Shown here in pieces: positions 6,153 through 54,178 of a DNA stretch of 64,000 bases. Within the stretch, counting starts at the first letter, position 1. Every line of letters starts with the position of its first letter. This stretch comes from Deltaproteobacteria bacterium (GTDB lineage: Bacteria; Desulfobacterota; GWC2-55-46). The stretch lies in contig JACRCH010000016.1 in the NCBI GenBank assembly GCA_016219115.1, positions 22,294 through 86,293 of the forward strand, written 5' to 3'. Made by a program: the position numbers and the translations under genes. The notes below the pieces were generated by a model. The model searched no databases. It was not told the DNA's origin and was given only the letters and a program-made list of their open reading frames with translations.

Positions 6153-6764
6153 CTAACGCCATGGCCCCCCGAAGCCGCCCGGCCCTGCGTTCAACTTGTA
6201 CCCCTTCGGGACCTCGAAGAGGGACCTTGGCTGCGGGCCGATCTTGAGACCTTGAAGCTCGGTGGAGACCTCGGTCCAGGGCCGCCCCCTCTCTCTTGAA
6301 ACCATCTTCAAAAGTATCCCCTCGCCGGTCACCCAGATGTATCCTTCGTAAACGGTCCCGTTCTGGCCGACCGCCTCCATGCGGCTCTTTATGGTGATGA
6401 TGCCGTTTATCAGCTCCGGGCCTAGCCGCGTATATTGATAGTCGAGGTCCTCTGGGCTCTGTGAGCGCTCCATCGCCTGTCTTACAGGTATCTCGATGTA
6501 GGTCTTTTCCCCCGGCATCAGCAGCCAGACGACCAATTTGTCCATCCGGGTTATAGTCACCTGCTCTTTACCCGGCGCTCTCTCCTCCCTTCTTTCCATA
6601 TAGGGGGCGTGGTAGACCTTGCCGGTCGAGAACAGTCCGCCCGTTATCGTCATGGTCTCGGCAGAGTACTCTACCATCGGCTCCGCCAGCCTGCCGGCCG
6701 ATGCCGTCGTTGAGATTGCCAGTAAGAATAAGAGGCTTGAAAAGAGTCGGGCTGACCTTCGCAT
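6153..6764 (-). CDS. hypothetical exported protein
   Basis: An ORF with a clear signal peptide from the internal start (MRRSARLFSSLLFLLAISTTASA). No recognisable catalytic motifs. Confidence 0.45.
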   Translation of the reverse strand: MRRSARLFSSLLFLLAISTTASAGRLAEPMVEYSAETMTITGGLFSTGKVYHAPYMERREERAPGKEQVTITRMDKLVVWLLMPGEKTYIEIPVRQAMERSQSPEDLDYQYTRLGPELINGIITIKSRMEAVGQNGTVYEGYIWVTGEGILLKMVSRERGRPWTEVSTELQGLKIGPQPRSLFEVPKGYKLNAGPGGFGGPWR

Positions 6765-14192: not shown

Positions 14193-15983
14193 ATGCTCAA
14201 AATCAAAGCGGCCGCCGTCGCCAAGATAACTCGTCCGAGTTACTTGAAGGTCCTTGACAGAAAGAGGCTTTTTACGCTCCTGGACCGATGCCGCAAGCGT
14301 CAAGCCGTATGGATAGCCGGCCCCCCTGGCTCGGGCAAGACCGTGCTTGTAAGCAGCTACATTGAAAAAAAAGGTCTTCCAGCGATCTGGTACCAGGTCG
14401 ACCCCGGCGACTCTGACGCCGCGACCTTCTTTTATTATATGCGGCTTGCGGCCCAGAAGGCCGTCCCCAGGAAGAAGACACGGCTCCCACTCTTGACCCC
14501 CGAATACATTCCCGGAATACGCGCCTTTACAAAGAGGTTCTTTGAAGGCCTCTATGCGACCGTAAAGGCCCCTTTCTGCCTGGTCTTCGACAATTACCAT
14601 GAGGTGGGCGGCTCGATCTTCCACCGGATAATAAAAGACGGACTCGAGGTCGTCCCCGAGGGCGTGAGCGTGATATTTTTAAGCAGGAGCGGACCACCGG
14701 CGGAGTTCACGAGGCTGCGGGTAAGCGGAGCCATGGAGGTCGTCGACAGGGATGAGCTGGACCTGACCGCGGAGGAGGCCCGGGCCATTACGCGCATAAA
14801 GTCCGGACCCGCCATCACGAAGCAGGCAGCTTCCGAGATGCACAAAAGGACAGAAGGGTGGGCGGCGGGCCTTATCCTCATGCTCGAGCAGGTCAAAAAT
14901 GGGGTCGCCGGCATAGAGGACTTCAAGGAGATGACCCCGAAGGCCATATTCGATTACTTCTTATCCGAGATATTCCAGAACATGGACGACGATACGCGGA
15001 CGGTGCTCCTGAAGACCGCGTTCCTGCCGGATATGGACTCAAGGATGGCGGAAAAGCTCACCCGGCTTCCGGGCGCAGGGGAAATACTCTCGAGGCTCAA
15101 CCGCAACAACTACTTTACCGAAAGGCGTTTCCAGGTCAACCCGGTCTACCAGTACCACCCGCTGTTCAAGGAGTTCCTCCTTGCAAAGGCCAGGGAATCT
15201 TTTACGGGGGCCGACATCATGGGGCTGTTAAGAAAGGCCGCGGAGATACTCGAGGAGTCGGCGAAGTACGAAGACGCCTTCAAGCTCCTGAGGGACGCCG
15301 GCGACTGGGAGGGGGTATCGCGTCTTATAGTCAGTCACGCCGGCTCGCTGGTGTCCCAGGGCAGGTGGGCCGTACTCGAAACATGGATAAGAAGCGTTCC
15401 GCCGGAGACGCTCTCCGAAGACCCGTGGCTCCGTTACTGGCTCGGCGCCTGCGGGATGCAGACCAACCCGGATGGGGCAAGGAAGGACTTCGAGGCCGCT
15501 TACGGCATATTTGCAGGCGAAGGGACCGATGTGGCGGGGATATTCCTCTCGTGGTGCGGCGCGGTGAACACCTTCCTGTACGCCTGGAGGGACTACCATC
15601 CGCTCGACGGCTGGATAGCCGGGTTCGAGGGGCTGAGGAAAAGATACGGGGAGCCGCTTCCCGAGGAGATCGAAGACAATATCGCCGCGTGCGTATTCGG
15701 GGCGCTGATGTTCCGCCAGCCCTCGCATCCCGACCTCCCGGTGTGGGAGGAGCGGGTAAAGCAGATACTCCATAGGTCAAAGGACGAAGTCGGCAGGATG
15801 AGCGTCGGCCATAACCTGATCCTCTATTACCTATGGACGGGGAGGAATTCAAAGGCGGGCCTCGTAATAGAGACTCTTTCGCCGGCGTTCAAGGGACTCA
15901 ACGCCCCGCCGCTGGCGGAGCTTATGTGGCACTTTTCCCGGGCCCTCTACTACTACCATATGGCCTCTACAGGGACGCCCTGA
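14193..15983 (+). CDS. STAND/AAA_16-type NTPase regulatory protein, N-terminal part (probably frameshifted, continues in 15833-17398)
   Basis: Walker A (GPPGSGKT) and Walker B-like (CLVFDNYHEV) motifs with a MalT/AfsR-like helical domain. The ORF ends where the +2 frame ORF takes over. The proposed start is the internal ATG at 14193; the track start at 13944 overlaps the upstream gene. Confidence 0.6.
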   Translation: MLKIKAAAVAKITRPSYLKVLDRKRLFTLLDRCRKRQAVWIAGPPGSGKTVLVSSYIEKKGLPAIWYQVDPGDSDAATFFYYMRLAAQKAVPRKKTRLPLLTPEYIPGIRAFTKRFFEGLYATVKAPFCLVFDNYHEVGGSIFHRIIKDGLEVVPEGVSVIFLSRSGPPAEFTRLRVSGAMEVVDRDELDLTAEEARAITRIKSGPAITKQAASEMHKRTEGWAAGLILMLEQVKNGVAGIEDFKEMTPKAIFDYFLSEIFQNMDDDTRTVLLKTAFLPDMDSRMAEKLTRLPGAGEILSRLNRNNYFTERRFQVNPVYQYHPLFKEFLLAKARESFTGADIMGLLRKAAEILEESAKYEDAFKLLRDAGDWEGVSRLIVSHAGSLVSQGRWAVLETWIRSVPPETLSEDPWLRYWLGACGMQTNPDGARKDFEAAYGIFAGEGTDVAGIFLSWCGAVNTFLYAWRDYHPLDGWIAGFEGLRKRYGEPLPEEIEDNIAACVFGALMFRQPSHPDLPVWEERVKQILHRSKDEVGRMSVGHNLILYYLWTGRNSKAGLVIETLSPAFKGLNAPPLAELMWHFSRALYYYHMASTGTP

Positions 15984-17398
15984 TGTCCGTCGAGGAGGGG
16001 CTCTGTCTGGCGGAAAAGACCGGGGTGCGCCTTGTAGACGAGATGCTTTTCGGGGCCGGCGCTTTAAGCAGCATCCCTCTTAACGATATCGACGGGGCGG
16101 CCAGGTTCCTTGGAAAGATGGCCGGGGTCTTGAAGGAAAAGAACTTCTTTGGAGCAATCTTCTATCACCACATTGCCTCCCTGGTGGCGCTCAACAGGGG
16201 TGATACGCTCTCAGCCGTCGAGCACGCGAGGACCTCATGGAAGATGTCGGATGAGTGCGGCGGGCCCTTTATCCAGAATATCATGCACTACGGCTTCACA
16301 TATACGCTCCTGGAGGCCGGCAAGTACAGGGGCGTGGCCAGGCGCATAGAGGAAGTGAGGAGTCTGTCGCGCCGCACTAAAAGCGCCCTCATGGAATACG
16401 CGTGTCTGCTCCTGGAGTCCCTGCTCGCGATGAAGACCGGGGACGAAAAGACATTCCTGAACAGGCTCGGCAAAGCCATGAAGCTCGGAAGCGCCCGGGG
16501 GATAAGGTTCTACACGCTCCTTCTCCACTCGTCGTCTTCCATGCTCTGCGACAGGGCTTTGAAAGAAGGGTTCGAGCCTGAGTACGTAAAGACCCTTATA
16601 AGGGCCAACAACCTCGCCGCGCCGGACCCGGAGGCCGAGGGGTGGCCGTGGCGCCTGAAGGTACACGCCCTCGGCGGTTTCGAGATGTACAGGGATGACA
16701 CGAAGATAGAGTTCTCAGGAAAGGCGCAGAAAAAACCCCTTGACCTCCTTAAGGCCGTTATCGCCATGGGCGGGCGCGACGTCAGGGAGGAGAAACTGAC
16801 CGACGCGCTCTGGCCTGATGCCGAAGGGGACGCCGCCCACAGGGCCTTTGCCACTACGCTGCACAGGCTCCGCGCCCTTTTGGGGATTGACGGAGCGATA
16901 CAGCTTAGAGAGGGGATGGTATCGCTCGACGGGAGGCGCTGCCGGGTAGATGTCCGGGAGTTTGAGCGCGCACTTGAAAAGGTCGATGAGAGGGTAAAGA
17001 AGCTCGGTTACTCTGACAGTACGGAGAACCTCCTGGAGAAGGCCCTGGGCCTGTACCGCGGCAGCTTCCTGCCGTCGGAGTCGGAGAAGGGCTGGACCGC
17101 TCCGATGAGGGAGAAGCTGAGGGGTAAGCTTTTAAGGCATATCAGGTCCGCCGGGATCTCGCTGGAGGAGGCCGGGGAGTTCTCGAAGGCGGTCGTCTGG
17201 TTCCAGACGGGTATCGAGATGGACCCGCTGGCCGAGGAACTCTACCGTCATTTAATGGTAAGTTTTACCAGGCTCGGGCAGAGGTCCGATGCCATGGCAG
17301 CGTACGAACAGCTTAAGAAAAACCTCTTTTCCAAGATAGGTTTACAGCCATCCCTGAAGACCAGGTCTGTCTATAAATCTATCTTTCCGGCCTCGTGA
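15833..17398 (+). CDS. C-terminal part of the same regulator: helical/TPR-like region plus SARP module (OmpR-type winged helix plus BTAD)
   Basis: WRLKVHALGGFEMYRDD...KPLDLLKAVIAMGGRDVREEKLTDALWPD...TTLHRLRALLG matches the OmpR/SARP wHTH. It is followed by a BTAD-like helical bundle (LEKALGLYRGSFL ... AYEQLKKNLFSKIGLQPS). It overlaps the upstream ORF by about 150 nt in another frame. Confidence 0.6.
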   Translation: MDGEEFKGGPRNRDSFAGVQGTQRPAAGGAYVALFPGPLLLPYGLYRDALMSVEEGLCLAEKTGVRLVDEMLFGAGALSSIPLNDIDGAARFLGKMAGVLKEKNFFGAIFYHHIASLVALNRGDTLSAVEHARTSWKMSDECGGPFIQNIMHYGFTYTLLEAGKYRGVARRIEEVRSLSRRTKSALMEYACLLLESLLAMKTGDEKTFLNRLGKAMKLGSARGIRFYTLLLHSSSSMLCDRALKEGFEPEYVKTLIRANNLAAPDPEAEGWPWRLKVHALGGFEMYRDDTKIEFSGKAQKKPLDLLKAVIAMGGRDVREEKLTDALWPDAEGDAAHRAFATTLHRLRALLGIDGAIQLREGMVSLDGRRCRVDVREFERALEKVDERVKKLGYSDSTENLLEKALGLYRGSFLPSESEKGWTAPMREKLRGKLLRHIRSAGISLEEAGEFSKAVVWFQTGIEMDPLAEELYRHLMVSFTRLGQRSDAMAAYEQLKKNLFSKIGLQPSLKTRSVYKSIFPAS

Positions 17399-17514: not shown

Positions 17515-17991
17515 ATGCGCCAAGGGTGTGTGAAGTGCTTAAAGTTGCCACGTATCGCGGAGGATACATTGGCAGGCGACATCAACCGGAAGAGGATTTT
17601 GGTTGTGGCCGGCGATGAGACTGTCCGGCATTTCTGCCGCGCTTCTCTCGCCCCGGACCTCTATCACGTAGAGCTTGTCTCGGGCATGCACGAGGCGCTC
17701 GGGTCCCTGAGGTCCGTGCCGTACGACCTTGTGATCTCGGATATAGAGGTCCCGAAGCTCGACGGGATAGACCTGTATATAATCATCCTCAAGAAGTACC
17801 CTTACCTCAAAAACAGATTCCTCTTCATAATCGGCGACTGCTCAACGGATCTGCCCTCGTTCTTAAGCTACGTACAGATCGGATACCTCGCGAAACCCAT
17901 AAAAATATCGGAACTTATCGAAGCCGTCGGCAAGGCCGCAGCAGAGCGGCCTATGACGCCGGGCTCAAGTTCGCGGGACCGTTCCCTGTAA
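17515..17991 (+). CDS. receiver-like protein with degenerate acidic pocket (pseudo-receiver), paralogue of 11815-12198
   Basis: YDLVISDIEVPKLDGIDLY and KKYPYLKNRFLFIIGD parallel the response regulator at 11815. The N-terminal DD pair is replaced (VVAGDE) and the conserved Thr is replaced (FIIGD). Confidence 0.55.
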   Translation: MRQGCVKCLKLPRIAEDTLAGDINRKRILVVAGDETVRHFCRASLAPDLYHVELVSGMHEALGSLRSVPYDLVISDIEVPKLDGIDLYIIILKKYPYLKNRFLFIIGDCSTDLPSFLSYVQIGYLAKPIKISELIEAVGKAAAERPMTPGSSSRDRSL

Positions 17992-18111
17992 CATCCGTGA
18001 TAATGCTCGCCGAGGGGGCCGGCACTGGGTCGAATTGACCGCAGAGGCGCAAAAAGGGGCAGGCAGGGAGTAGAGAGGGAAGGGTCATAATAACGCATAC
18101 TGGAGGTTTCA

Positions 18112-18318
18112 GTGTTTAAGATAGAGTGCGCAAGCTGCAACTCGTGGTTTCATCTCCCTTTCAACAGCGAAGGCGACGAGGTGGAATGCCCGAACTGCAG
18201 TAAAAAGACCCCGGCCAAGGACGTATACGTCGCGGCGGGGCCTTACATGATATTCAGGGAAGTGTTGATCAAAAACATGCCCAAGTACAGACGCCTCATA
18301 CTCGAGGCCGAGAAGTAG
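18112..18318 (+). CDS. zinc-ribbon domain protein (MJ0042-type CxxC...CxxC finger), possibly the N-terminal part of a disrupted gene
   Basis: MFKIECASCNSWF...ECPNCSKK has two CxxC pairs. A single TAG separates it in-frame from the EAL fragment. Confidence 0.35.
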   Translation: MFKIECASCNSWFHLPFNSEGDEVECPNCSKKTPAKDVYVAAGPYMIFREVLIKNMPKYRRLILEAEK

Positions 18319-18672
18319 ATACTCGACCTGCAGAAAAAGTCCGCGCTAAAGACCTACGACATATCAGCGAAAAGCGTCAACGCATTTATCGAAAACCTCA
18401 AGGAGATGAACGTTGACTATATCAAGATAGCCGGCTCGTTCATCAAGAACTTGAGACAGAACGTAAACGACCAGCTCTTCGTAAAGGCGATAAGCGATGT
18501 GGCCAGGGGGATGGGGATAAAGACCATAGCCGAGTTCGTGGAGTGCGTCGAGCTTCTGCCGGTACTCAAGGAGTACGGCGTGGATTACGCCCAGGGGTAC
18601 GCGATCGGCCGGCCCGCGCCCGCCCCGGAGTACAAGGGCGCCATGACGGATGCGCTCAAAGATATCGAATAA
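18319..18672 (+). pseudogene. EAL-domain (c-di-GMP phosphodiesterase) C-terminal remnant
   Basis: VDYIKIAGSFIKNL...VKAISDVARGMGIKTIAEFVECVE...GVDYAQGYAIGRP matches the last roughly 90 aa of EAL domains. The N-terminal two-thirds of the domain is absent. Confidence 0.5.
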
Positions 18673-18689: not shown

Positions 18690-18722
18690 AGACAAAAACA
18701 CCGGGTCATTGAACCCGGTCCA
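18690..18722 (-). terminator. rho-independent terminator for the sigma factor gene
   Basis: On the minus strand ACCGGGTTCAATGACCCGGT forms a hairpin followed by GTTTTTGTCTCC. It lies about 125 nt downstream of the stop at 18847. Confidence 0.45.
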
Positions 18723-18846
18723 CGCTTCCATGCCGTCTTACGCGAGTCCTCCGTCATTTTTCCCGATCAGTCCGGAAGGCGCAACCACATAATACCGTTG
18801 CCGGCCTGACCGACTGTAAGGGGTGAGGGGCAGGGTTTTTAGCTCG

Positions 18847-19887
18847 TCAGATGTGCTCCATCGATGAAATGTCGGCGCGCCTTGCCAGGTCGCGGAGCTT
18901 TCCCAGGGCCTTGCACTCGATCTGCCTGACCCTTTCGCGTGTCACGCCGAAGGAGTTGCCTATCTCCTCGAGGGTGTGCGGCTCCTCATGGTCGAAGCCG
19001 AACCTGAGCTTGAGTATCGTCCTCTCGCTCTCGTCGAGTATGCCCAGGAGCTTTCTTATCTTCTCTACCCTGTCGGAGTCCTCAAGCGACCTCTCCGGTG
19101 TGGGGAACCTGTCGTCCTCCAGCCTGTCCAACAGCGTATGGTCTGAGTTCTCGTGAGTAAGTGATTCAAGCGAAAGAGACTTTCTCGATATAGTATCGAG
19201 TTTTTTCACGTACCTGCCGGAAAAGCCGGTCTTCTGGGCGATCTCCGAGAGGTCAGGCTCCCTGTGCAGGATGGCAAGAAGCTCCTTGGATGCCCTGGTG
19301 ACCTTGTAGAGGTCCGTTGAGATGTGTATCGGTAGCCTCACGGTGTTGGACTGGTTAGCCAGGGCGCGTTCTACCGTCTGTTTTATCCAGAAGGTGGCGT
19401 ATGTGGAGAACCTGCACCCCTTGGTGGCCTTGAACCTCTCAACGGCCTTGATGAGCCCCAGGTTGCCTTCCTCAATCAGGTCCTCGAATGAGAGCCCGCG
19501 GTTCAAGTACCGCCGCGCGATGTTGACGACAAGGCGCAGGTTCGAGCTTATCATGGCGTCGCGCGCTCCTGTGTCGCCTCTGGAGATCTTTCTCGCGAGC
19601 CTGATCTCGTCCTCTTGCGTAAGGAGCTTGAATCGCTTGATCGACCCGAAGTATATCTTTATCGATTCCCTCGCCGGTACAGGGCCTTCGTGCTCACGGG
19701 CGGGTTTTGCCTCCCTAAAAAGACCTGAGACCGGTTTTCCTTCCGGCGCATCGGGGTATGTACCCATCTTGTAGGGCATAGGATAACCTGAACCTTTGCC
19801 GATGCCGGAATCCTTTTTCCCGGTTTGCATCTTTGAAACAACAGGCCTTTTTTTAGACTTCGTCACGGTGACAGTTCTCCCAAGCAT
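18847..19887 (-). CDS. sigma-70 family RNA polymerase sigma factor (group 2, RpoS/RpoD-like) with Lys/Gly-rich N-terminal extension
   Basis: Region 2 (DLIEEGNLGLIKAVERFKATKGCRFSTYATFWIKQ), region 3 and region 4 (LEEIGNSFGVTRERVRQIECKALGKLR) are present. The total of 346 aa fits RpoS-size proteins. Confidence 0.8.
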   Translation of the reverse strand: MLGRTVTVTKSKKRPVVSKMQTGKKDSGIGKGSGYPMPYKMGTYPDAPEGKPVSGLFREAKPAREHEGPVPARESIKIYFGSIKRFKLLTQEDEIRLARKISRGDTGARDAMISSNLRLVVNIARRYLNRGLSFEDLIEEGNLGLIKAVERFKATKGCRFSTYATFWIKQTVERALANQSNTVRLPIHISTDLYKVTRASKELLAILHREPDLSEIAQKTGFSGRYVKKLDTISRKSLSLESLTHENSDHTLLDRLEDDRFPTPERSLEDSDRVEKIRKLLGILDESERTILKLRFGFDHEEPHTLEEIGNSFGVTRERVRQIECKALGKLRDLARRADISSMEHI

Positions 19888-20010
19888 AAGACCCTCCGTT
19901 TTTTTTGTCCGTGAATAGAATTAATACGGCCAGTTAAAACCGAAAGTTTTCTGGATAGCCTATATCGGCCAGGTCTGCATTTTAAAATATGTTTGAACAA
20001 AGGATATAAA

Positions 20011-20027
20011 TTGCAAGTGGCATGCCA
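20011..20027 (-). promoter_or_regulatory. sigma-54 (-24/-12) promoter upstream of the sigma factor gene
   Basis: The minus strand reads TGGCAT-GCCAC-TTGCA, matching TGGCAC-N5-TTGCW with correct GG/GC spacing. It lies about 120 nt upstream of the start at 19887 and next to the sigma-54 activator gene. Confidence 0.55.
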
Positions 20028-20159
20028 GAATTGAAGTCTATAAAAATCAATGTGTTAGTCCGGGTGGGAGAATAAATAAGAATTGAATGATAAGTTTATT
20101 ACCATGTAATATGGTAAGAAACTTATCGCCAAGAATGGATAGAAGCGCCTTTAACCCTT

Positions 20160-21548
20160 CTATTTGTCAGATAACAGGAGTTTTTTTCTGAGCGTAAGCC
20201 GTGAGATGCCGAGTATCTTTGAGGCGGCTGATTTGTTGCCCCGCACCTTGGCGAGGACCATATTGATGTGTTTTTTTTCGGCTTCTTTAAGCGTCATGTC
20301 CGACGCGGACATCGCTAAAGGTTGTGCGGAGGCGGTCTTTGAGAGCTCATCGGGCAGATGGGCAGGCAGTATATCTCCGTTGCCGGAGAGTATGGTAGCC
20401 CTTTCAATGGCGTTTTTAAGCTCCCTGACATTACCGGGCCAGTTGTATCCCAAAAGTATGCGGTGGCATTCTGGAGAAAGCCTCTTTACCGCTCCGAGCG
20501 AGTTCTCGTAGGTCGATATAAAATAACGGGCCAGCGGGAGTATGTCTTCTTTCCTATCCCTCAGGGGTGGTAAGTTTATTACCATGACCTTTAACCTGTA
20601 GTAGAGGTCTTCCCTGAAACGGTTCTCCCTGACAAGGGCCTCAAGGTCCTTGTTCGTGGCGGCTATCACCCTTAAGTCCACCTTTATGTCCTTTGTGCCG
20701 CCAATCTTTCTGAAGGTCCTGCTCTCAAGGAACTTAAGGAGCTTAGGCTGGATCCTCAACTCCATGTCACCTATCTCGTCGAGAAAGACGGTGCCTCCCT
20801 CGGCAAGCTCAAAGAGCCCCTTTTTGGTCTGCTTGGCGTCCGTGAAGGCGCCCTTTTCGTACCCGAACATCTCGGTCTCAAGAAGCGTGTCGGGGATGGC
20901 GCTGCAGTTTATCTCGATAAAAGGGTGGGTCCTTCTGTTGCTGGCGAAGTGTATCGCGTTGGCCACCAGCCCCTTGCCCGTCCCGGTCTCTCCCTGGAGG
21001 ATTACCGAGGTGTTCGAGGTCTGGGCCACCGTGCGCACCATCTCCTCGACCTCCTTGAAGGAGCTGCTCGAGCTTATCATCCTCAGGTCGCATCTCTGCT
21101 CGGCCATGTGCGTCATCGACTCGGACCTGAGTTTTTTCGCGTCCCGCTCCTCCGCCCTCCTTTTACGCTCCAGGGCGAAGCGTATCGCGCGCACCAGCAT
21201 GCTTGAGTCCGCATGGCCCTTTACGAGATAGTCCTGAGCACCGGCCCTCACGGCGTTCGCCGCCAGCATCTCGTCGTCGAGGCCCGTAAGCACCACTATC
21301 GGGGTGGAGCGCGCCTTCTCATAGACTTTGAGGAAGGTATCGATCCCGCTTGTCTCCGGAAGCGTGAGGTCAAGAAGTATTATGTCGTAGCCGCCGGCGG
21401 AAGCTTCCCTGACGGCGGCCTTGAGGGTGTGGGCCTCCGTGATACTGAAAAGGTCCCCGGCGCCGGAATCCGCGAGCATCTCCCTGACAAGCCGGGAGTC
21501 GGCCGGGTTGTCGTCTACAAGGAGTATATTCAAAGGTTCGATATTCAT
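20160..21548 (-). CDS. sigma-54-dependent response regulator (NtrC family: receiver + AAA+ sigma-54 activator + Fis-type HTH)
   Basis: Receiver (LLVDDNPAD...IILLDLTLP), Walker A (GETGTGKG), the GAFTDA loop (EMFGYEKGAFTDA) and a C-terminal HTH (SKILGISRLTLRKKL) are all present. Confidence 0.9.
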   Translation of the reverse strand: MNIEPLNILLVDDNPADSRLVREMLADSGAGDLFSITEAHTLKAAVREASAGGYDIILLDLTLPETSGIDTFLKVYEKARSTPIVVLTGLDDEMLAANAVRAGAQDYLVKGHADSSMLVRAIRFALERKRRAEERDAKKLRSESMTHMAEQRCDLRMISSSSSFKEVEEMVRTVAQTSNTSVILQGETGTGKGLVANAIHFASNRRTHPFIEINCSAIPDTLLETEMFGYEKGAFTDAKQTKKGLFELAEGGTVFLDEIGDMELRIQPKLLKFLESRTFRKIGGTKDIKVDLRVIAATNKDLEALVRENRFREDLYYRLKVMVINLPPLRDRKEDILPLARYFISTYENSLGAVKRLSPECHRILLGYNWPGNVRELKNAIERATILSGNGDILPAHLPDELSKTASAQPLAMSASDMTLKEAEKKHINMVLAKVRGNKSAASKILGISRLTLRKKLLLSDK

Positions 21549-21605
21549 TTTCTCTTAGGGTTGATACCCCGTAGCCAGCTACGACTATTTGGATCAGATG
21601 TCCTT

Positions 21606-21640
21606 AAGATACCCCGCTAGCAAGGCTAGCGGGGAGGTTC
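21606..21640. repeat. R1 hairpin-GGTTCAT REP-like unit
   Basis: ATACCCCGCTAGCAAGGCTAGCGGGGAGGTTCATTGCG. The same unit occurs at at least 11 other sites, for example 10024-10062, 39862-39898 and 43323-43362. Confidence 0.7.
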
Positions 21641-21708
21641 ATTGCGCTCTTGTATAAAAATCCTTTTTGCGGTTGCGACGCCCGGAGGCGGTTAAGCCGC
21701 GCCCGGGT

Positions 21709-22152
21709 TTACCTGGGCGGAAGCTTCACGACCGTAAGCCAGAAGTCCTCCACGGCCTCAACGATCTTTATGAACTGGTCGAGGTCGACCGGTTTTTTGA
21801 TGTACGCGTTGACATGCAGGTCGTAAGCGGTAAAGACATCCTTCTCGTCGTCCGAGGTCGTAAGTATCACGACCGGTATCCTTTTGAGGTCCGGGTCCGC
21901 CTTTATCTCCGAGAGGACTTCGCGCCCGTTTTTCTTCGGCAGGTTCAGGTCGAGAAGTATCAGGTCCGGCTTCAAGGCGTCCCTGTGTTTGCCCTCTTGC
22001 CTCAAGTACGCCATGGCGTCCTCTCCGTCCACAGCCACGTGCATCCTGTTACGCACCTTGGCGTCCTTGAAGGCCTCTCTCGTAAGACGCACGTCCGAAG
22101 GGTTGTCTTCGACCATCAGGATCTCTATCGGGTCACCGTTCATTCTGGACAT
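21709..22152 (-). CDS. single-domain response regulator (receiver)
   Basis: [30 protein letters not shown] and YIKKP motifs. It overlaps the stop of the upstream kinase gene, so the two are translationally coupled. Confidence 0.85.
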
Positions 22153-24349
22153 ATCTAACCTCTTTTCTGTCGGGGATATTGAAGTAAAAGGTCGAGCCCT
22201 CGCCCGGTCTCGACTCGACCCAGATCCTTCCGCCGTAATTCTCGATGACCTTCTTGCAAATCGAGAGGCCGATCCCGGTGCCGGGGTACTCGGTCTTGCC
22301 GTGCAGGCGCTGGAACATCTCGAAGACCCGGTCGTGGTGCCTGGGCTCTATGCCTATGCCGTTGTCCGAGACCGAAAACTGCCAGGAGTCGGCCACGCGC
22401 TCCGCAGCGATGCGTATCTGCGGCGGCAAGGAGCCCCGGTACTTGACGGCGTTTCCGATAAGGTTCATAAAGACGTTCACTATCTGGCTGCTGGCGCGTA
22501 TCTTCGGGAGACCGTCGTAAGTTATGACCGCTCCGCTCTCCTCTATCGACGACTTGAGGTTGGCCAGGGCCGAGCGCACGGCCTCCCCGGTGTCGACCGT
22601 AGTGAACTCCTTCTTACGGCCCACCCGTGAGTATGAAAGGAGGTCGCTGATGAGCCTCTGCATGCGGGTGGCGCCGTCCACGGCGTACCCTATGAACTCG
22701 TCAGCGTCCGAATCCAGCTTGCCCTTGTAGCGGCGGGACAACAGCTGCATGTACCCGGCCACTATGCGGAGCGGCTCCTGAAGGTCGTGGGAGGCGGAGT
22801 ATGTGAACGCCTCAAGCTCCCTGTTCAAGGTCTTCAGCTCGGCCGTGCGGGCGTCCACAAGCTCCTCGAGGTGTTCGCGGTACCTTGAAAGCTCCTTTTC
22901 CGCCATCATGCGCCTGGTTTCAATCTGCGCCGACTCTATGGCGAAAGAGAGGTCAGCCGCAAGCGAGCTTAAAAGGCTTATCTGCGACTCGTCGAAGAAG
23001 TTCGGCTCCCCCGAATAGAAAGAGAGGGCCCCCACAACGCGCTCGCCCGAGAAGAGCGGAAAGGCCGCGCTGGAGCGGTAGCCTCGTTTCAGCGCCTCTT
23101 CGCGCCGTACCGCAATGTCCGGGTCGCTCTCGAAGTCGTCGCAGACGTAATGCCTGCCCTCGCGTATCGCGCTCCCGGTCGGGCCTCTCCCCTCGGGAGA
23201 ATCGGCCACCGAGATCCGCACGCCGGCGAGATAGCCTTCCTCCTTCCCCCAATGCGCCACCGGCTTTATAAGGAGGGTCCCGGGGTCTGCCATGCCGACC
23301 CATGTCATGAGGAAATTCCCATCCTCAACCCCGATCCTGCATGCCTCCCTGAAAAGGGTCTCCGGCTCCCTTATGCGGACGATCGACTCGTTGATCTTGC
23401 TTAAGACCGAATATAACCTGTTTAAGCGCACTACCTTCTTCTCGGCCTCTCTCCTCTCGTCTATCTCGTGCTTGAGCCTCAGGTTGGCCGACTCAAGGTC
23501 CTTTCCCTTGAGGTTGGCGGCCTGGGCGAAGTAGACCGCCGAGACAAGCACAAAGGTCCAGACAAAGCCCAGCGCCAGCGCTGCCCCCGGAAGGTCCGAG
23601 CGGATACTGGAAAGGAACGCCCGGCTGGGCCCGATGCGAACGCGCCATGTCACGCCGTAAAGCGCGATCTCCTGTTCGGCGGTGAAATCCGGTTCGTACG
23701 AATTGCCGGAAGAGTTGGCGTAGAGTATGTCCTTTCCGTCGAGGACCTCTACCGCGTAGTTCTCGGTCTCAAGATGCCGCATCACGGCAAGGATGCCGTC
23801 AAACACCTCCCGGTTTTTAAATACCACAACGATGGAACCCTTGAACGCATCGTTGCGGAAAAGCGGAAGTGCCGCAAGAAAACCCTTTTTTCCCGACGGA
23901 AGGTCGAGCAGATGTGAGAAGACCGTCTCGCGGGTCTCTTTCGCCTTTTGAAGCGCGTCGGAGACCGTTTTGGACGCGCCGGACCTGTAATCGAACCCGA
24001 CTCTGGCCTCGTTGCCCTCATGAGGCTCCACCCAGCGGAGCCTCATGTCGGGGCCGACAAACTCGATGCTTTCAATGCTGGGGTAGTCCTTTAAGTACAA
24101 CCTCGCGTCGTACCCCCACGCATCTTTCGTGAGCGTGCCGTCGTGTTCCAGCCTTTTGGCCATCCTCGCGAGAGCCTCAACGCGGAAGACGATATGGTCA
24201 CGTATGTCCTCCTTAAAAGCAGACGACTTCTCAGTGATATCGTGCTTTATGCTCTGGCGTTCCCACGAGGCGAGCCTCTGCCAGAGTATGAATGTAACGG
24301 TTATGGAGACTACTGCGATGATAACGGGTAAATAGCGGTTAGATCTCAT
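22133..24349 (-). CDS. sensor histidine kinase (periplasmic sensor domain, GAF, HisKA, HATPase_c)
   Basis: Two TM segments flank a periplasmic domain of about 250 aa. It has a GAF-like region, an H-box ([14 protein letters not shown]) and G-boxes (DNGIGI...GTGIGLS). The proposed start is the internal ATG (MRSNRYL); the track start at 24400 is a TTG. Confidence 0.8.
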
Positions 24350-24595
24350 TTTAAATAAAACCGATGGTTTAACGGGGCGCACTGTAAATACCCGGAACAA
24401 ATGGCCTCAGGAAGGCCGTCACCGCTTATCTTGAAAAGGCTTGAAAAATTTAAGCCATATTGGGTTTGATGTATGAGTAGAATACTACGGGTGAGAGAAA
24501 AAAGCAAGTTTTGAGGGCACTTTAGAAGCCCCGGCAGGCAGGGCATAGGGCTTTGGCGGCGGCTGACAGGGTCTTTGCCGGCAAGAAGTCTTCCG

Positions 24596-41516: not shown

Positions 41517-43136
41517 ATGGGGCAAAGGATAGTAATAGACCCGATAACGAGGATCGAGGGCCATCTGAGGATAGAGGTCGAGATAGCGGGCGGCAAAGTA
41601 ACAAACGCCTGGAATACGACCACGCTTTTCAGGGGCTACGAGATAATACTGCAGGGCAGGGACCCCAGGGACGCCTGGCACTTCTCCCACAGGATCTGCG
41701 GCATATGCCCCACGTCGCACGGACACACGGCCTCGATGAGTCTCGAGGATTCCTTCAAAGTAAAGCCGCCGGACAACGCGAGGATCATCAGGAACCTGAT
41801 GGAGGCCGCCCAGATAGGATACGACCACATACTCTGGTTCTATATCCTGAACGGCTTCGACTATGTCGATGTGGTCAGCGCCCTGAAGGCCAGGCCGAAA
41901 TCGCCGTCATTGAAGAAAGTCCAGGAGAGGATAAAGGCCTACGTTGACAGCGGGCAGCTCGGATTCCTCGGTAACGCCTACTGGGGCGCCCCCGAATACA
42001 AGCTCCCTCCGGAATTAAACCTCGAGCTTGTGGCGCACTACCTCGAATCGATCAAGGTGAAATCGCTGGCCACCGAAGCCGCGGCGGTATTCGGCGGCAA
42101 GTTCCCTTATGTGATGAGCACCCCTCCGGGAGGCGTGACCTGCGTGCCGACGCTCACGATGATAGCCGACTATCAGGACAAGATGAACAAGGTCAGGGCA
42201 TTCGTGGACGATACGGTCATCCCGGACCTGCTGGCGATAGCGCCGTACTACCTCTATCTTAAGGACTACGGGCCGGGGCACAAAAACTATCTCTCGATGG
42301 GCGTGCTCGACAGTAAGAGTCAGGACCCGTACGAGAGGCTCTTCCCCAGGGGCGCCATATTCTCGGACGCGCTGAAAATAGAGAAGGTGGACCTCCTCAA
42401 GGATATCGAGGAGTATGTCGGCCACAGCTGGTACACGGACCAGAGCGGCGGCGGCAGAAACCCCATGAACGGCGTGACGGAGCCGAAGTTTACCGGGCAG
42501 GAAGGGATAAAGGAGATAGACCACGAAGGCAAGTACGACTGGACAAAGGCCGTAAGGTTCAGGGGCAAGCCCATGGAGGGCGGCCCGCTGGCGCAGATGC
42601 TCACGGCGTACCTTGCCGGCAGGCCCCAGGCCAAAAAGCTCGTCGACGGTCTCCTCTCGGCCGTGGGCGCCCCTGGCAAGCTCAATATACTCCACTCCAT
42701 CCTCGGAAGGGTGGCTGCCAGGGTCTTAAAGCTCAAGATGACACTCGATGAGGTGGACGGCTGGGTCAACGAGCTTGTGGCCAACATCAAGGGCGGCGAC
42801 ATGCGTTTTTACACGCCTTACGAGATACCGGATTCGGCCAGCGGGGTAGCCGGGTGGGACGCCCCGAGGGGCTGCATAACCGACTACAATGTGATAGAGG
42901 GCGGGAAGCTCAAGCTCTGGCAGGCAGTACCGGCGTCGAACTGGAACTTCTCGCCGAGGGACGACAAGGGGGTAAGGGGGCCCGCCGAGGAGGCCCTGAT
43001 AGGAGTGCCGGTCCAGGACCCGAAGAAGCCGCTCGAGGTCTTGCGATTGATACACTCCTTCGACCCCTGAATGGCCTGCGCGGTTCACGTGATTGAACCG
43101 GAGACAAACGAGATACTCAAGTTCAGGGTAAGATGA
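41517..43136 (+). CDS. [NiFeSe] hydrogenase large subunit; selenocysteine encoded by in-frame TGA at 43068-43070
   Basis: The N-terminal Ni-binding motif RICGICPTSHGH is present. The annotated ORF stops at a TGA located exactly where the first Cys of the C-terminal DPCxxCxxH motif should be; read-through gives DP-U-MACAVHV-IEPETNEILKFRVR before the real stop at 43134-43136. A hairpin follows 11 nt later. Confidence 0.8.
43081..43100 (+). promoter_or_regulatory. SECIS-like hairpin downstream of the UGA
   Basis: CGGTTCA-CGTGAT-TGAACCG forms a 7-bp stem with a 6-nt loop, starting 11 nt 3' of the TGA. Confidence 0.5.
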
Positions 43137-45018: not shown

Positions 45019-45693
45019 ATGCACGACATCCTGATAGAAGAAGGCGTCCTGGCGAAGAACGACGGGATAGCCGGGGAGAACAGGGAGATGCTCCGCGGCA
45101 GGGGGATATACTCCATTAACATGGTAAGCTCGCCGGGCTCGGGTAAGACCTCGATAATAGAAAAGACGGCCGGGCTTCTTGACGGGCTCTTGAGGCTCGC
45201 GGTGATAGAGGGCGACATCGAGACCGACCTCGACGCTGAGAGGATAAGGAGGCACGGCGTCCCGGCAAAGCAGATAACTACGGGGAGGGCATGCCACCTT
45301 GACGCACACCATGTGCACCACGCGCTCCCGTGGCTCTTTGAGCAGGACGGGATAAGGCTTCTTATAATAGAGAATGTCGGCAACATGGTCTGCCCCGCCG
45401 AGTACGACCTCGGCGAAGAGATGAAGGTAGCGGTTATGAGCGTTGCCGAGGGGGACGACAAGCCGCTTAAGTACCCGGCCCTCTTCAGCGCCTCGCAGGC
45501 GCTCATCATAAACAAGACGGACCTCCTGCCCTACACGGACTTCAACATGCACAGGGCGAGGGAGAACGCATTGCGGATAAACCCGGAGTTAAAGGTTTTT
45601 GAGACCTCGTGCACGAAGGGGACGGGGCTTCAGGAGTGGTGCGGGTTTCTTCTCAGTTCCGCCGGAGCGGCGGCAAAGGCGCCGGTGAAATAA
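45019..45693 (+). CDS. hypB: hydrogenase nickel incorporation GTPase HypB
   Basis: P-loop (SSPGSGKTS), a CH motif (GRACHLDAHHV), ENVGNMVCP and NKTDL. Confidence 0.9.
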   Translation: MHDILIEEGVLAKNDGIAGENREMLRGRGIYSINMVSSPGSGKTSIIEKTAGLLDGLLRLAVIEGDIETDLDAERIRRHGVPAKQITTGRACHLDAHHVHHALPWLFEQDGIRLLIIENVGNMVCPAEYDLGEEMKVAVMSVAEGDDKPLKYPALFSASQALIINKTDLLPYTDFNMHRARENALRINPELKVFETSCTKGTGLQEWCGFLLSSAGAAAKAPVK

Positions 45694-45818
45694 AAGCGGC
45701 CGCCTGCGGATGGAAGGAAGGGAACGGGGGCGGCCCGGCGCCGGGGGCGGAAATAAAAGAGTACAAGGAGAGGGCCGGCGGCGCATTCCAAGCGGCGTTT
45801 AAGGCTGCGTATAAAACC

Positions 45819-47114
45819 ATGTGTCTGACCATACCGGCGAAAGTCATAGCGATCGATAATCCGGTGCCGGGCTTTCCGGTAGCGAACATCACCGTCGAGG
45901 ACTCAAAGGGCAGGAAGGAAATAAAATCCCTGTGGCTGCCGGAGCTCAAGGTCGGCGACTGGGTGCTCTATGCCTACGACACGGCGATACGCAAGGTAAG
46001 CGAGGAGGACGCCAGAGAGATACTGGAGCTGCTCGAGCCCAAAAAGCATATCGACATATCCGCTTTGGACACCGGCTTCCTCGAAGTCCTGAAGGGCCAT
46101 TCCACGGGTAATCTCTCAAGGGACGGGATAGTGAGGCTTTTGAAGACCGAAGACCCCTTGGAGATGGAGACCCTCTTTGCCGAGGCCAATACCGTAAGGC
46201 AGGCTTCCTTGAGGGATTTTTTCTGTATCCACGGGATAATGGAGTTCTCGAACCACTGCGCCATGAACTGCTTCTACTGCGGCTTGAGGAGAGACTCCGC
46301 TGACGTGGTTCGCTACAGGATGACCCCGGATGAGATAGTGGGCGCGGTCGAAGACGCCGTCAACAGGCGCGGGTACAAGCTCATAGTGCTGCAGTCAGGC
46401 GATGACTTCCATTATACCGACATCAAGCTCGTGGAGATAATCAGGAGGATAAAAAAGTCCTCCAAGGTCTTTATCTTCATGAGCGTGGGGGAGCGCAGTA
46501 TCGAGTGCTACCGGAGGATGAAGGCTGCCGGGGCCAGCGGCGTGCTCTTCCGCTTCGAGACGTCCAACCGGGAGATCTACAACCTGATACATCCGGGCCA
46601 GTCATATGACCGGAGGATGGAGCTGTTGAAGGGGATGAAAGAGCTCGGTTACTACATAGCCTCAGGTTTTCTCATCGGCCTGCCGGGCCAGACGGCGGAA
46701 GACATCGCCGATGACATACTCGCCATGAAGGCGCTGAAAGTCAACATGGCCTCCATAGGCCCCTTCATCCCGTGCGCCTCGACTCCCCTGGCGACGCATC
46801 AGGCCGGGAGCGCGGAAATGACCCTGAAGGTGACCGCTGTCCTGAGGCTGCTGATGCCAAGGGCGAAGATCCCGGTCACGACAGCCCTTGAAACCATTGA
46901 GAGCGAAGAGGGCAGGAGGCTCGGGCTCTCCTCCGGGGCGAATTCGCTCATGTTCAACCTCACGCCCGAGAGATACAGGGGCGACTACAGGATATATCCG
47001 AACAAGTACCACGGCAAGGAGGAGGTCTGGGAGAAGTACGGTCTCTTTAACGAAGAACTCAGCTACAGGATGCTCGAGAAGAAGATGTTCGAGGCCTTCG
47101 AGGTGCTGAAATGA
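45819..47114 (+). CDS. HypC-like chaperone domain fused in-frame to a HydE-like radical SAM enzyme
   Basis: N-terminus: MCLTIPAKVIAIDN...KVGDWVLYAYDTAI...EDAREILELLE matches the HypC/HupF signature (MC[LI]..P, KVGD[WY]VL). It continues without a stop into LSRDGIVRLLKTEDPLEMETLF...IMEFSNHCAMNCFYCGLRRDSADVVRYRMTPDEI...IVLQSGDD...GPFIP, matching HydE (CxxxCxYCGLRRDN, VLQSGED). The start is placed at the Met of MCLTIP (coordinate derived from ORF-track residue count, about +/-3 nt). The 70 codons upstream in the track overlap hypB. Confidence 0.65.
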   Translation: MCLTIPAKVIAIDNPVPGFPVANITVEDSKGRKEIKSLWLPELKVGDWVLYAYDTAIRKVSEEDAREILELLEPKKHIDISALDTGFLEVLKGHSTGNLSRDGIVRLLKTEDPLEMETLFAEANTVRQASLRDFFCIHGIMEFSNHCAMNCFYCGLRRDSADVVRYRMTPDEIVGAVEDAVNRRGYKLIVLQSGDDFHYTDIKLVEIIRRIKKSSKVFIFMSVGERSIECYRRMKAAGASGVLFRFETSNREIYNLIHPGQSYDRRMELLKGMKELGYYIASGFLIGLPGQTAEDIADDILAMKALKVNMASIGPFIPCASTPLATHQAGSAEMTLKVTAVLRLLMPRAKIPVTTALETIESEEGRRLGLSSGANSLMFNLTPERYRGDYRIYPNKYHGKEEVWEKYGLFNEELSYRMLEKKMFEAFEVLK

Positions 47115-48502
47115 CAACCGGCGCATGGACGGAGACATTCATAGACGATAGAAGGATCGGCTCGGCGCTCGAGAAGTCCGCAAAGCCCTCGAAAAAAGCT
47201 GTGACGGAACTCCTCGCCAAAGGGCGCTCCCTTGCCGGGCTTACCCCCGAAGAGGCCGCGGTCCTGTTAAACGCCGAAGGTGAAGAGGCAAGGGCCGCGA
47301 TATTCGAGACCGCGACCCGCATCAAGAACGCCATATACGGCGACAGGCTGGTCTTTTTCGCCCCGCTCTACCTGAGCAACTACTGCGTGAACGACTGCGT
47401 TTACTGCGGGTTTCATTCCAGCAACAAGGCCGTCCGCAAAAAACTGACGATGGACGAGATAAGGGGGCAGGTCCGCCTGCTGATAGAGATGGGCCACAAG
47501 AGGCTGCTGCTTGAGGCCGGCGAGGACCCCGTGCACAACCCCATAGACTATCTCCTCGAAGCCGTAGACACTATCTACTCCGTCAAGACCGACAAGGGCG
47601 AGATAAGACGCCTGAACGTAAACATCGCCGCCACGAGCGTGGAGGACTACAGGCTCCTGAAAGCCAGGGGTATCGGCACATATCAGCTCTTCCAGGAGAC
47701 CTACCACAGGGCCACCTTTGAACGGCTGCACAGGGGGCCAAAGGGCGACTACCGCAGACAGCTCTATGCCATGGACAAGGCCTTCGAGGCCGGTATTGAC
47801 GATGTCGGCCTCGGTGTCCTCTTCGGCCTCCATGACTGGCGGTTCGAGGCGCTCGGGCTCGTCTCGCACGCCGAGTACCTCTCGAAGGCATTCGGAGTGG
47901 GCCCCCATACCATCTCGGTTCCGAGGTTCAGGCCCGCCGCGTCGGTGGAGCTTACGCCCGGATTTCCAGTAAGCGACGAAGACTTCCTGAAGCTCATAGC
48001 GGTCTTGAGGATAGCGGTCCCTTATACGGGGATGATAATAACTACACGGGAGAGGCCTGAGATAAGGGAGGCCGCCTTCAGGATAGGCATAAGCCAGACG
48101 AGCGCCGCGTCTTCTACTACCCCCGGCGGCTTCGGCCAGAAGGGAGAGCAGGGGGTGGAGCAGTTCGCGCTCTCGGACAAAAGGACCCTCGATGAGATAG
48201 CGATAAGCGTCATGAAGCAGGGCTACACCCCGAGCTTCTGCACCGCCTGCTACCGGAAAAAGAGGACAGGCGGTACATTCATGGACCTGGCCAGGCCCGG
48301 CGACATACAAGAGTTCTGCACTCCCAACAGCATCCTGACGCTCTTTGAATATATCGAAGACATCGCCTCTCCGGAGAGCAAGGCCCTCGGCATGGAGATA
48401 ATAAGGAAATCGCTTGAAAGCATCGAAAACCCCACTATAAAAGAAGAGACGGAAAAAAAACTTGAGAGGATCAGGCGGGGCGAAAGGGACCTTTATTTCT
48501 GA
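47111..48502 (+). CDS. HydG-like radical SAM tyrosine lyase (ThiH/HydG family with C-terminal CX2CX22C auxiliary-cluster motif)
   Basis: A radical SAM motif (CVNDCVYCGFHS). The C-terminus has SFCTACYRKKRTGGTFMDLARPGDIQEFC, which is exactly C-x2-C-x22-C as in HydG; this is absent from ThiH. The ATG overlaps the stop of the upstream gene. Confidence 0.75.
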   Translation: MTTGAWTETFIDDRRIGSALEKSAKPSKKAVTELLAKGRSLAGLTPEEAAVLLNAEGEEARAAIFETATRIKNAIYGDRLVFFAPLYLSNYCVNDCVYCGFHSSNKAVRKKLTMDEIRGQVRLLIEMGHKRLLLEAGEDPVHNPIDYLLEAVDTIYSVKTDKGEIRRLNVNIAATSVEDYRLLKARGIGTYQLFQETYHRATFERLHRGPKGDYRRQLYAMDKAFEAGIDDVGLGVLFGLHDWRFEALGLVSHAEYLSKAFGVGPHTISVPRFRPAASVELTPGFPVSDEDFLKLIAVLRIAVPYTGMIITTRERPEIREAAFRIGISQTSAASSTTPGGFGQKGEQGVEQFALSDKRTLDEIAISVMKQGYTPSFCTACYRKKRTGGTFMDLARPGDIQEFCTPNSILTLFEYIEDIASPESKALGMEIIRKSLESIENPTIKEETEKKLERIRRGERDLYF

Positions 48503-48680
48503 CAGACGAAAGACCTCTCCGGCGGACAACGGGTCTTTTTCCGTCCTCCCCTTAAGCGCGGAAAAGCGGTCCCCGGGCACGAAAACCGTCTTCTGTTAAA
48601 GAGGCAACAAAGTAACGGTCGGCACGGTTTTGCGGTTGAGACGGGTTTCCTTGCCGTACAAAGATATACGCAGAGACTGA

Positions 48681-48722
48681 AAAAGCGTTTAGCCTTAGAA
48701 GGCTAAACGCTTTTTCAGTCCC
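48681..48722. terminator. bidirectional rho-independent terminator
   Basis: AAAAAGCGTTTAGCCTT-CTAGAA-GGCTAAACGCTTTTT is a perfect palindrome with flanking A/T runs. Confidence 0.55.
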
Positions 48723-48910
48723 CCGGGGCGCAACATCCGCCGGAGCCTTTCTTGCGCCGTCCGCCAGGACCTTTTTCATCCCTTATTGCTTTAGGCGATG
48801 ACGCTCTCGCCAAAAACCGTTATACGGCGGGTTCCAACGAGCATAGACAGTTGTCAGGTTGACCGTATACCGTCGTTGGAGTATAATCATCTCTGGCCCC
48901 TTGGCGGCTG

Positions 48911-52368: not shown

Positions 52369-52425
52369 CGTCTTCCCCCTTCAAAAAACAGGAACGTACT
52401 CGGTTTAAATTGGCTTAAGACCTGG

Positions 52426-52959
52426 CTACTTGCAGAGATCAAGCAACCGTTTGGCGCGGACCATATTCCTGCGTAGTGCTTGCTCGCCCTCTTCAGTAAG
52501 CTCCCACGGCCTTGGATTCGAAACCTCGCTTTCGGCTTCTTTCAAGAATTCTTTCAACGCATAAAAAGCCTTCCTTTTTTCACCGCCAAGGAGATAAGCC
52601 CTTCCTAAAGGCAGAAGAACCTCATAACTTGAAACCTCATACCTTGTAACTTTGTATGCTTTTTTATAAAATCCGGCTGCATCAGCAAACCTCTTCTTTT
52701 TTTCTTCTTCAAGCCCTTTCAGCCAAAGTCCATAGAAATCAATATCTCCCTGAGCCCATGGTGCATCTTTATTCCTTCCAACTAACTCCAGGTTTTCTTT
52801 GACAAGTAAGGATTCTTCATAGATGGCCCTGAGAATATCTTGTCCGTCTTCAGGAGGCACATAGGACTTAGCGCATCCCAGAGGTCCAAAAAACAAGAAG
52901 AGTGACCACAAGGATATACAAAGAGAAATTAACGCAGGATTTTTGCACGCCTTATTCAT
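52426..52959 (-). CDS. hypothetical lipoprotein
   Basis: A signal peptide with a lipobox (LFLFFGPLGCAKS). Helical and TPR-like, with no catalytic motifs. It lies immediately downstream of the M23 peptidase gene on the same strand. Confidence 0.4.
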   Translation of the reverse strand: MNKACKNPALISLCISLWSLFLFFGPLGCAKSYVPPEDGQDILRAIYEESLLVKENLELVGRNKDAPWAQGDIDFYGLWLKGLEEEKKKRFADAAGFYKKAYKVTRYEVSSYEVLLPLGRAYLLGGEKRKAFYALKEFLKEAESEVSNPRPWELTEEGEQALRRNMVRAKRLLDLCK

Positions 52960-54166: not shown

Positions 54167-54178
54167 CAAATCTGGCTC

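Follow-up and report, generated by a model that had tools for sequence, protein, structure and literature searches.

How is the gene for an RpoS-like sigma factor switched on when a complete two-component system is encoded directly ahead of it, and does that system act through sigma-54? This question is raised by a 64-kb stretch of contig JACRCH010000016.1 from a Deltaproteobacteria bacterium (the window, i.e. the whole stretch of DNA that was analysed, with all of its proteins known from sequence alone), which carries on its minus strand the genes for a sensor kinase, a stand-alone receiver, an NtrC-family activator of sigma-54 RNA polymerase and a sigma-70-family sigma factor. An earlier, sequence-only reading of this DNA had listed these four genes and had proposed that the two-component activator drives the sigma gene from a -24/-12 promoter. 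All four genes are present where that reading had placed them, and the proposal itself finds support in the conserved promoter, in paired inverted repeats (dyads) upstream of it, in an intact activator and in the comparison with loci that lack the activator. We consider it quite likely that this is a genuine sigma-54 promoter of the sigma gene and that it depends on the activator. The four genes, in the order of transcription, are:

22133..24400, minus strand: sensor histidine kinase, 755 amino acids (transmembrane segment, extracytoplasmic CHASE, transmembrane segment, GAF, HisKA, HATPase_c)
21709..22152, minus strand: stand-alone receiver, 147 amino acids (Pfam Response_reg, 75.5 bits)
20160..21548, minus strand: NtrC-family sigma-54 activator, 462 amino acids (Pfam Response_reg, Sigma54_activat, AAA_lid_14, HTH_8)
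18847..19887, minus strand: group-2 (RpoS-like) sigma-70-family sigma factor, 346 amino acids (Pfam regions 1.2, 2, 3, 4)

The gap between the activator and sigma genes measures 272 bp and harbors the following putative regulatory elements:

20112..20128, no strand assigned (letters of the minus strand): distal enhancer dyad CGATAAGTTTCTTACCA, two mismatches to TGGTAA-N5-TTACCA, centre at about -119
20088..20104, no strand assigned (letters of the minus strand): proximal enhancer dyad TGGTAATAAACTTATCA, one mismatch, centre at about -95
20045..20057, plus strand: tentative IHF-like site AATCAATGTGTTA, exact WATCAANNNNTTR, centre at about -50, between enhancer and promoter
20012..20027, minus strand: predicted sigma-54 (-24/-12) promoter TGGCATGCCACTTGCA, with GG at 20026/20025 and GC at 20014/20013, conserved in L002, L003 and L005-L008
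19888..20001, minus strand: predicted 5' untranslated leader of 114 nt, with its start taken from the promoter register

The promoter element TGGCATGCCACTTGCA is the sole match to TGGCAY-N5-TTGCW on either strand of the window (0.05 expected; 5 of 100 shuffles contained a match). It keeps the GG-N10-GC spacing and departs at two positions from the 24-nt extended sigma-54 consensus mrNrYTGGCACG-N4-TTGCWNNw, as quoted in PMC2725144. The sequence-only reading had the motif right as TGGCAT-N5-TTGCA, but its range of 20011-20027 was one base too long; it gave a distance of about 120 nt to the sigma gene, and we measured 125 nt from the end of the motif to the ATG. With the GG at -25/-24 and the GC at -13/-12, transcription would start near 20001, and the sigma ATG at 19887 is preceded by a GGAGG ribosome-binding site. 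The predicted leader folds no differently from shuffled sequences (z = -0.89), and an Rfam scan of the window yielded no match, hence no riboswitch or known leader in the 5' untranslated region. Scanning of 18700-20300 on the sigma strand detected no sigma-70-type promoter in the 272-bp gap, nor did any terminator receive a score there, a weak 5-pair stem within the leader being the sole item found on that strand in the gap.

Conservation in related genomes, which amounts to a strong phylogenetic footprint, carries much of the argument. Scanning of species-representative genomes with the sigma protein gave 52 loci, which later look-ups extended to 61 loci totalling 674 kb. The closest relatives of the window are found in uncultured groundwater metagenome-assembled genomes (MAGs) labelled 'Deltaproteobacteria' or Thermodesulfobacteriota, and the eight loci L001-L008 have sigma factors that are 48-80% identical. 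Six of these (L002, L003, L005-L008) have the activator gene directly upstream together with enough upstream sequence, and in all six the stretch from activator to sigma gene contains, on the sigma strand, an exact TGGCAY-N5-TTGCW, which reproduces the order of activator, -24/-12 element and sigma gene seen in the window; the other 46 of the 52 loci have no such match anywhere in them. Relaxing the pattern to TGGCAY-N5-YTGCW yielded 11 matches in the 61 loci and 674 kb, with 10 of the 11 positioned on the sigma strand between activator and sigma genes. The kinase position is occupied by long kinases of 777-797 amino acids in L002, L003 and L008, as judged by length and position, and by short HisKA-HATPase proteins in L006 and L007, while an open reading frame of 146-159 amino acids is located at the receiver position in L002, L003, L006 and L008.

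The sequence-only reading had advised that enhancer-type inverted repeats be sought upstream of the -24 element, and two dyads are indeed conserved there in both sequence and position. All seven orthologous loci, the window included, contain two 17-bp dyads of the form TGGTAA-N5-TTACCA. Measured from the T of TGGCA, the dyad centres fall at -93 to -97 and -69 to -72 (for the window, about -119 and -95 relative to the predicted start site). In the 674 kb of loci retrieved, the dyad at up to one mismatch was confined to these enhancer positions. When the seven upstream regions were aligned with MAFFT, 33 columns proved invariant, nearly all falling on the two dyads, an AAC trinucleotide, TGGCA and TTGC, in contrast to the sigma proteins of the same loci, which are just 48-65% identical. 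Given that the tandem dyads are conserved and that the activator has an HTH_8 domain, the design appears to be enhancer-dependent; the combination of tandem 17-bp dyads with a bend site and a -24/-12 promoter is the classical layout of NtrC-type systems. As for the bend site, the IHF consensus has 4 matches in the window vs. 1.2 expected, and the relatives have a YAA-N4-TTGAW element at the same offset, 18-30 nt upstream of TGGCA, with the AAC invariant. Since the relatives deviate from the consensus by 1-2 bases, IHF involvement is tentative.

Loci without this activator serve as controls. In L004 an Rrf2-family gene takes the place of the activator gene, and neither promoter nor dyads are present; L058 likewise is without activator gene, sigma-54 site and dyads, and has a TTGACA-N17-TACAAA candidate before the sigma gene. 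These loci indicate that gain or loss of the activator gene goes hand in hand with that of promoter and enhancer. Four further loci (L053, L057, L059 and L060) harbor a different activator, 32% identical to that of the window and with a GAYTGA loop in L053 and L057, for which this was measured. The upstream motifs of these four loci are shared among themselves and are unlike those of the window; they have a conserved TGGCATG-N4-CTGCA followed by a receiver (REC) or REC-PilZ gene and then immediately by the sigma gene. Within this sigma family, sigma-54 control thus seems to recur, with two activators that are unrelated to each other. The REC-PilZ gene between promoter and sigma gene is located at 5605..6402 in L053, 5515..6282 in L057 and 5702..6427 in L059, and the gene inserted between sigma-54 promoter and sigma gene in L002 (6365..6700) and L003 (6572..6907) encodes SpoVG.

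The activator itself has the features expected of a working protein. Its Pfam matches score 69.8 bits for Response_reg, 225 bits for Sigma54_activat (PF00158) and 41 bits for the C-terminal, Fis-type HTH_8 at residues 419-457; the NCBIfam ntrC model gives 344 bits, which is under its cut-off of 558.6. The receiver residues D12/D13, D60, T88 and K110 are all present, with D60 as the phospho-acceptor aspartate, and the AAA+ domain has a Walker A motif GETGTGKG at 186 and a Walker B motif FLDEIG at about 255. The loop that contacts sigma-54 reads GAFTDA at 233 vs. the canonical GAFTGA, and GAFTDA is retained in all seven activator orthologues (the window, L002, L003 and L005-L008), which are 58-65% identical. 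The same G5-to-D exchange is a natural variant of FlgR of Campylobacter, a validated activator (Francke et al., PMC3162934). Based on the retention of GAFTDA in all orthologues and on the FlgR variant, the loop is predicted to be compatible with sigma-54 contact, and the ATPase motifs appear intact.

Upstream in the operon, the kinase comprises the Pfam domains CHASE, GAF_2, HisKA and HATPase_c, with the CHASE domain bracketed by two hydrophobic segments at approximately residues 21-45 and 268-295; its true start is probably Met18, near 24349. The start of the receiver gene overlaps the kinase stop by 20 nt. The G+C content of the window is about 56%.

From these genes, domains, catalytic motifs and promoter and dyad sequences, all directly observed along with their conservation and their co-occurrence with the activator gene, we postulate the following cascade, for which we infer the phosphotransfer partners, the binding of the activator to the dyads, the role of IHF, the start site, the dependence on rpoN and the regulon. 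The membrane kinase would sense a signal through its extracytoplasmic CHASE and cytoplasmic GAF domains and would phosphorylate Asp60 in the receiver domain of the activator, encoded two genes downstream, with the stand-alone receiver serving as a second phosphoryl acceptor in the role of sink or modulator. The activated protein would assemble on the two tandem 17-bp dyads at about -119 and -95, and an IHF-like bend at about -50 would probably help it to reach sigma-54 RNA polymerase, which would wait in a closed complex on TGGCAT-N5-TTGCA. Contact with sigma-54 via the GAFTDA loop and hydrolysis of ATP would then open the promoter, and the resulting transcript, with its leader of some 114 nt, would encode the group-2 RpoS-like sigma factor, which would redirect core polymerase to its own regulon.

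Several observations weigh against this cascade. A six-frame search for the RpoN box in the window and the 61 loci, a tiny fraction of each genome, did not find one, and it is the intact activator that points to the presence of rpoN in the genome; likewise, it is the co-occurrence of activator gene and dyads that suggests binding of one to the other. The loci all come from uncultured MAGs, and the IHF consensus is exact in the window alone, with 1-2 mismatches in the relatives. The two window dyads are capable of forming one A/U-rich hairpin (-18.4 kcal/mol, z = -6.9), and, with no strong terminator in between, transcripts of the sigma gene could also arise by read-through from the kinase-receiver-activator operon. 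As an alternative, the -24/-12 site might be functional and yet be driven by another activator encoded elsewhere, with the adjacent system serving other targets and the dyads binding, for example, a repressor. Genomes of Thermodesulfobacteriota can encode dozens of activators (PMC12316311), and the dyad motif of the window has one further copy within the activator gene. We regard this explanation as very unlikely, however, in that the activator gene, dyads and promoter co-vary (present at 7 loci, absent from L004 and L058), the upstream motifs change where the activator is a different one, and tandem 17-bp dyads some 70-95 bp upstream of the -24 element represent the classic NtrC layout known from glnAp2 in textbooks.

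Two further explanations were weighed. Most transcription of the sigma gene might come from operon read-through or from a sigma-70-type promoter that escaped recognition, which would leave the sigma-54 site silent or a mere roadblock to polymerase; the lack of a scored intrinsic terminator after the activator gene fits with this, as does the activator-less L058, where the TTGACA-N17-TACAAA candidate shows that the family can use other promoters. This we hold to be very unlikely, because the sigma strand of the 272-bp region has no sigma-70-like promoter and because the -24/-12 core and the enhancer are conserved while the proteins are 48-65% identical, which points to selection for function, but read-through may add basal transcription of the sigma gene. 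The least probable of the explanations considered here is that the paired palindromes form a hairpin in the RNA by which the transcript of the upstream operon is terminated or stabilised, and are not an enhancer bound by protein. The hairpin of the window, with 16 pairs followed by a U-rich stretch, and the long hairpins in L005 and L008 would favor such a role, but L006 forms two separate small hairpins, the fold in L007 is not significant (z = -1.25), the relatives have no consistent U-tail and the terminator scan gave the dyad region no score. Moreover, it is the half-site TGGTAA/TTACCA itself that is conserved, without compensatory changes and at a fixed distance from the promoter, as expected for a protein site. 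Termination as the conserved function of the dyads was rejected, since neither fold nor U-tail is conserved. We therefore retain activation of the sigma-54 promoter by the adjacent two-component system as our preferred explanation.

The copy of the dyad within the activator coding sequence merits separate description:

20568..20584, no strand assigned: third dyad TGGTAAGTTTATTACCA, a perfect TGGTAA-N5-TTACCA inside the activator coding sequence, at about -575; tentative

This segment encodes MVINLP using the rare codons GTA (0.13), TTA (0.07) and CCA (0.03), and the chance of obtaining the dyad given this peptide is about 3e-4. It is not conserved, with 2-7 mismatches at the same codons in the relatives. 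This third dyad might act as a remote enhancer site, or might be there by coincidence.

Which sigma factor would be made by this cascade? The 346-residue protein has group-2 architecture, comprising regions 1.2-4 without region 1.1. The NCBIfam RpoS models are its best matches, with scores under their cut-offs (NF004207, 289.8 vs. 394; TIGR02394, 287.2 vs. 378.7), and the closest solved chains are RpoS at 233 bits, with Firmicute SigA slightly behind at 229 bits. A housekeeping sigma factor, as might be read from the generic NCBI name RpoD/SigA, was rejected on account of the length of 346 residues, the lack of region 1.1 and the RpoS models as best matches; the primary RpoD chains that it matches exceed 600 residues. 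The position that we take, by eye, to be the equivalent of E. coli RpoS K173 and sigma-70 E458 appears to be Thr, and we make no call of specificity from it.

We noticed that the sigma factor of the window has a lysine-rich N-terminal extension with the sequence YPMPY at residues 35-39 (window 19771..19785), and that a WPLPY-like motif, [WY]P[LM]P[YF], is found at the equivalent place in most of the activator-linked relatives (N-termini of P0002-P0035 and others). We speculate that a regulator or adaptor might dock at this motif. In L058 a WPLPY-encoding stretch at about 6300..6500 is located upstream of the 301-residue sigma call (P0008) in another reading frame, which suggests a frameshift or assembly error in the N-terminal extension of that protein. 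Shorter sigma factors of 298-317 residues are without the motif and have other neighbourhoods. One such short sigma gene follows Fur-family and peroxiredoxin genes in L054-L056 (5258..6315), and another (P0060, in L061) resides in a surE-pcm-LOG-nlpD context, the classical rpoS neighbourhood. The window does not show the surE-pcm-nlpD-rpoS synteny, and kinase, receiver and activator genes are found upstream instead.

L061 and the activator-linked L059, with its motif-bearing P0023, belong to the same assembly, GCA_040961615.1, which makes the two sigma types paralogues in that lineage. In a neighbor-joining tree built from 135 sigma sequences, the window falls among sequences that bear the motif and are linked to an activator, but the motif-bearing sigma factors as a whole do not separate into one clean clade apart from the short nlpD- and Fur-linked ones; because the deeper branching is left unseparated, it is the one genome with both types that speaks for paralogy. 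The term RpoS-like used in the sequence-only reading is thus apt as far as architecture, best models and best structures go, and goes too far if taken to mean RpoS, given the scores under the RpoS cut-offs and the grouping with WPLPY-like sigma factors. Taken together, these data are consistent with an RpoS-like group-2 sigma factor that is not RpoS itself and is probably a paralogue of it. We also entertain, as a possibility that we would rather doubt than assert, that it belongs to an unrecognised group-2 subfamily in uncultured Thermodesulfobacteriota, marked by [WY]P[LM]P[YF], paralogous to RpoS and wired to sigma-54 as a family trait by means of interchangeable adjacent activator modules, two unrelated activator types having been seen so far, each with its own enhancer.

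The genes found near these sigma factors also bring to mind the regulators of rpoS in Borrelia, where the Fur homologue BosR controls the stability of rpoS mRNA and where SpoVG and the PilZ protein PlzA are other regulators that bind both DNA and RNA (PMC11109971). The SpoVG, REC-PilZ and Fur-family genes described above parallel SpoVG, PlzA and BosR, respectively. By analogy, this parallel would suggest a convergent or ancient regulatory logic for 'second' stress sigma factors.

Other parts of the window were surveyed as well. Convergent with the sigma gene is what looks like a decayed REC-EAL gene for a cyclic di-GMP phosphodiesterase (17515..18672, plus strand), in which a receiver gene at 17515..17991 is followed by in-frame stops and then by only about 70 residues from the end of an EAL domain at 18406..18672. 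Upstream of this remnant, at 15833..17398 on the plus strand, is the gene for a 521-residue protein with a C-terminal bacterial transcriptional activator (BTAD) domain and MalT-like TPR repeats, and hence a second cluster of regulatory genes in this stretch. At 41517..43070 and 45609..50707 there is a hydrogenase and maturation neighbourhood unrelated to the sigma-54 module; it comprises genes for the large subunit of a NiFe(Se) hydrogenase and for three radical-SAM proteins, distinguished by a HupF/HypC, a BATS and a Radical_SAM_N domain, respectively. From about 52000 to 64000 the G+C content falls from about 57% to about 45%, and the proteins encoded there are one with ankyrin repeats (55024..56928), one with RTX calcium-binding repeats (56940..60089), a C39-peptidase ABC exporter (60236..62392) and an HlyD-family protein (62471..63799). 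In all probability this is a type I secretion/RTX island that was acquired horizontally.

Cascades in which sigma-54 controls the gene of another sigma factor (RpoS, HrpL, FliA) are already known, and no concept is overturned here; what is new is a cleanly delineated enhancer-dependent example from uncultured bacteria. A close parallel in architecture is the NtrB-NtrC/glnAp2 system, in which a kinase phosphorylates a REC-AAA+-HTH activator and tandem 17-bp dyads lie about 100-140 bp upstream of a TGGCA-N6-TTGC-type promoter (Reitzer and Magasanik 1986 and Popham 1989, as cited in PMC11109971). The module of the window shares with it a REC-AAA+-HTH activator with its kinase and tandem 17-bp dyads upstream of a predicted -24/-12 promoter. 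It differs in the half-site (TGGTAA/TTACCA vs. TGCACC/GGTGCA in NtrC), in dyad centres that are 24-25 bp apart, in the CHASE-GAF sensor and in its likely target, which is a sigma gene rather than nitrogen assimilation.

A two-tier arrangement, with sigma-54 and its activators leading to an alternative sigma factor of the sigma-70 family, is likewise shared with the HrpL and FliA cascades. In Pseudomonas syringae, HrpR and HrpS, which are without receiver domains, act with sigma-54 to transcribe hrpL. In Geobacter the top-scoring RpoN promoter precedes an operon containing fliA, and the text on the RpoN regulon does not name rpoS as a target (PMC2725144); our literature search found no report of sigma-54-dependent rpoS in Deltaproteobacteria or Geobacter. 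The targets in these cascades are an extracytoplasmic function sigma factor (HrpL) and sigma-28 (FliA), in contrast to the group-2 sigma factor predicted here. Compared with canonical RpoS, the protein of the window is alike in group-2 architecture (regions 1.2-4, no region 1.1) and in having RpoS models and structures as best matches, and is different in its scores under the cut-offs, in the absence of nlpD synteny and in the WPLPY-like extension, which is absent from the nlpD-linked P0060.

To our knowledge, direct sigma-54 control of the gene of a group-2 (RpoS-type) sigma factor has been documented by experiment essentially in Borrelia only, where it governs the switch from tick to mammal, and where the kinase gene adjoins the activator gene. 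In the Hk2-Rrp2-RpoN-RpoS pathway of Borrelia burgdorferi, an NtrC-type activator and sigma-54 directly transcribe rpoS from a -24/-12 promoter (PMC11109971, PMC2940757), and Rrp2 is described as activating rpoS independently of an enhancer (Blevins 2009, as cited in PMC11109971). The window resembles this pathway in having a sigma-54 promoter, here a sequence prediction, directly upstream of a group-2 sigma gene and under a two-component NtrC-type regulator. The analogy drawn by the sequence-only reading therefore holds for the logic and fails for the mechanism in detail: Rrp2 acts without an enhancer, whereas the module of the window has two conserved dyads, an IHF-like site and an activator with HTH_8. 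Other differences are that the activator gene of the window directly adjoins the sigma gene, that the organisms come from different phyla, and that the sigma factor scores under the cut-offs of the RpoS family and might be paralogous to canonical RpoS. The window and ten related loci would thus present the same wiring in free-living, uncultured subsurface bacteria, in its textbook enhancer-dependent form. As a compact cassette with clear predictions of activator binding site, promoter and target, it could be rebuilt in E. coli without culturing the organism, and it offers a handle on how an extracellular signal (through CHASE) or a cytoplasmic one (through GAF) might commit groundwater lineages to a global switch in transcription, as well as an evolutionary point of comparison for the Borrelia pathway.

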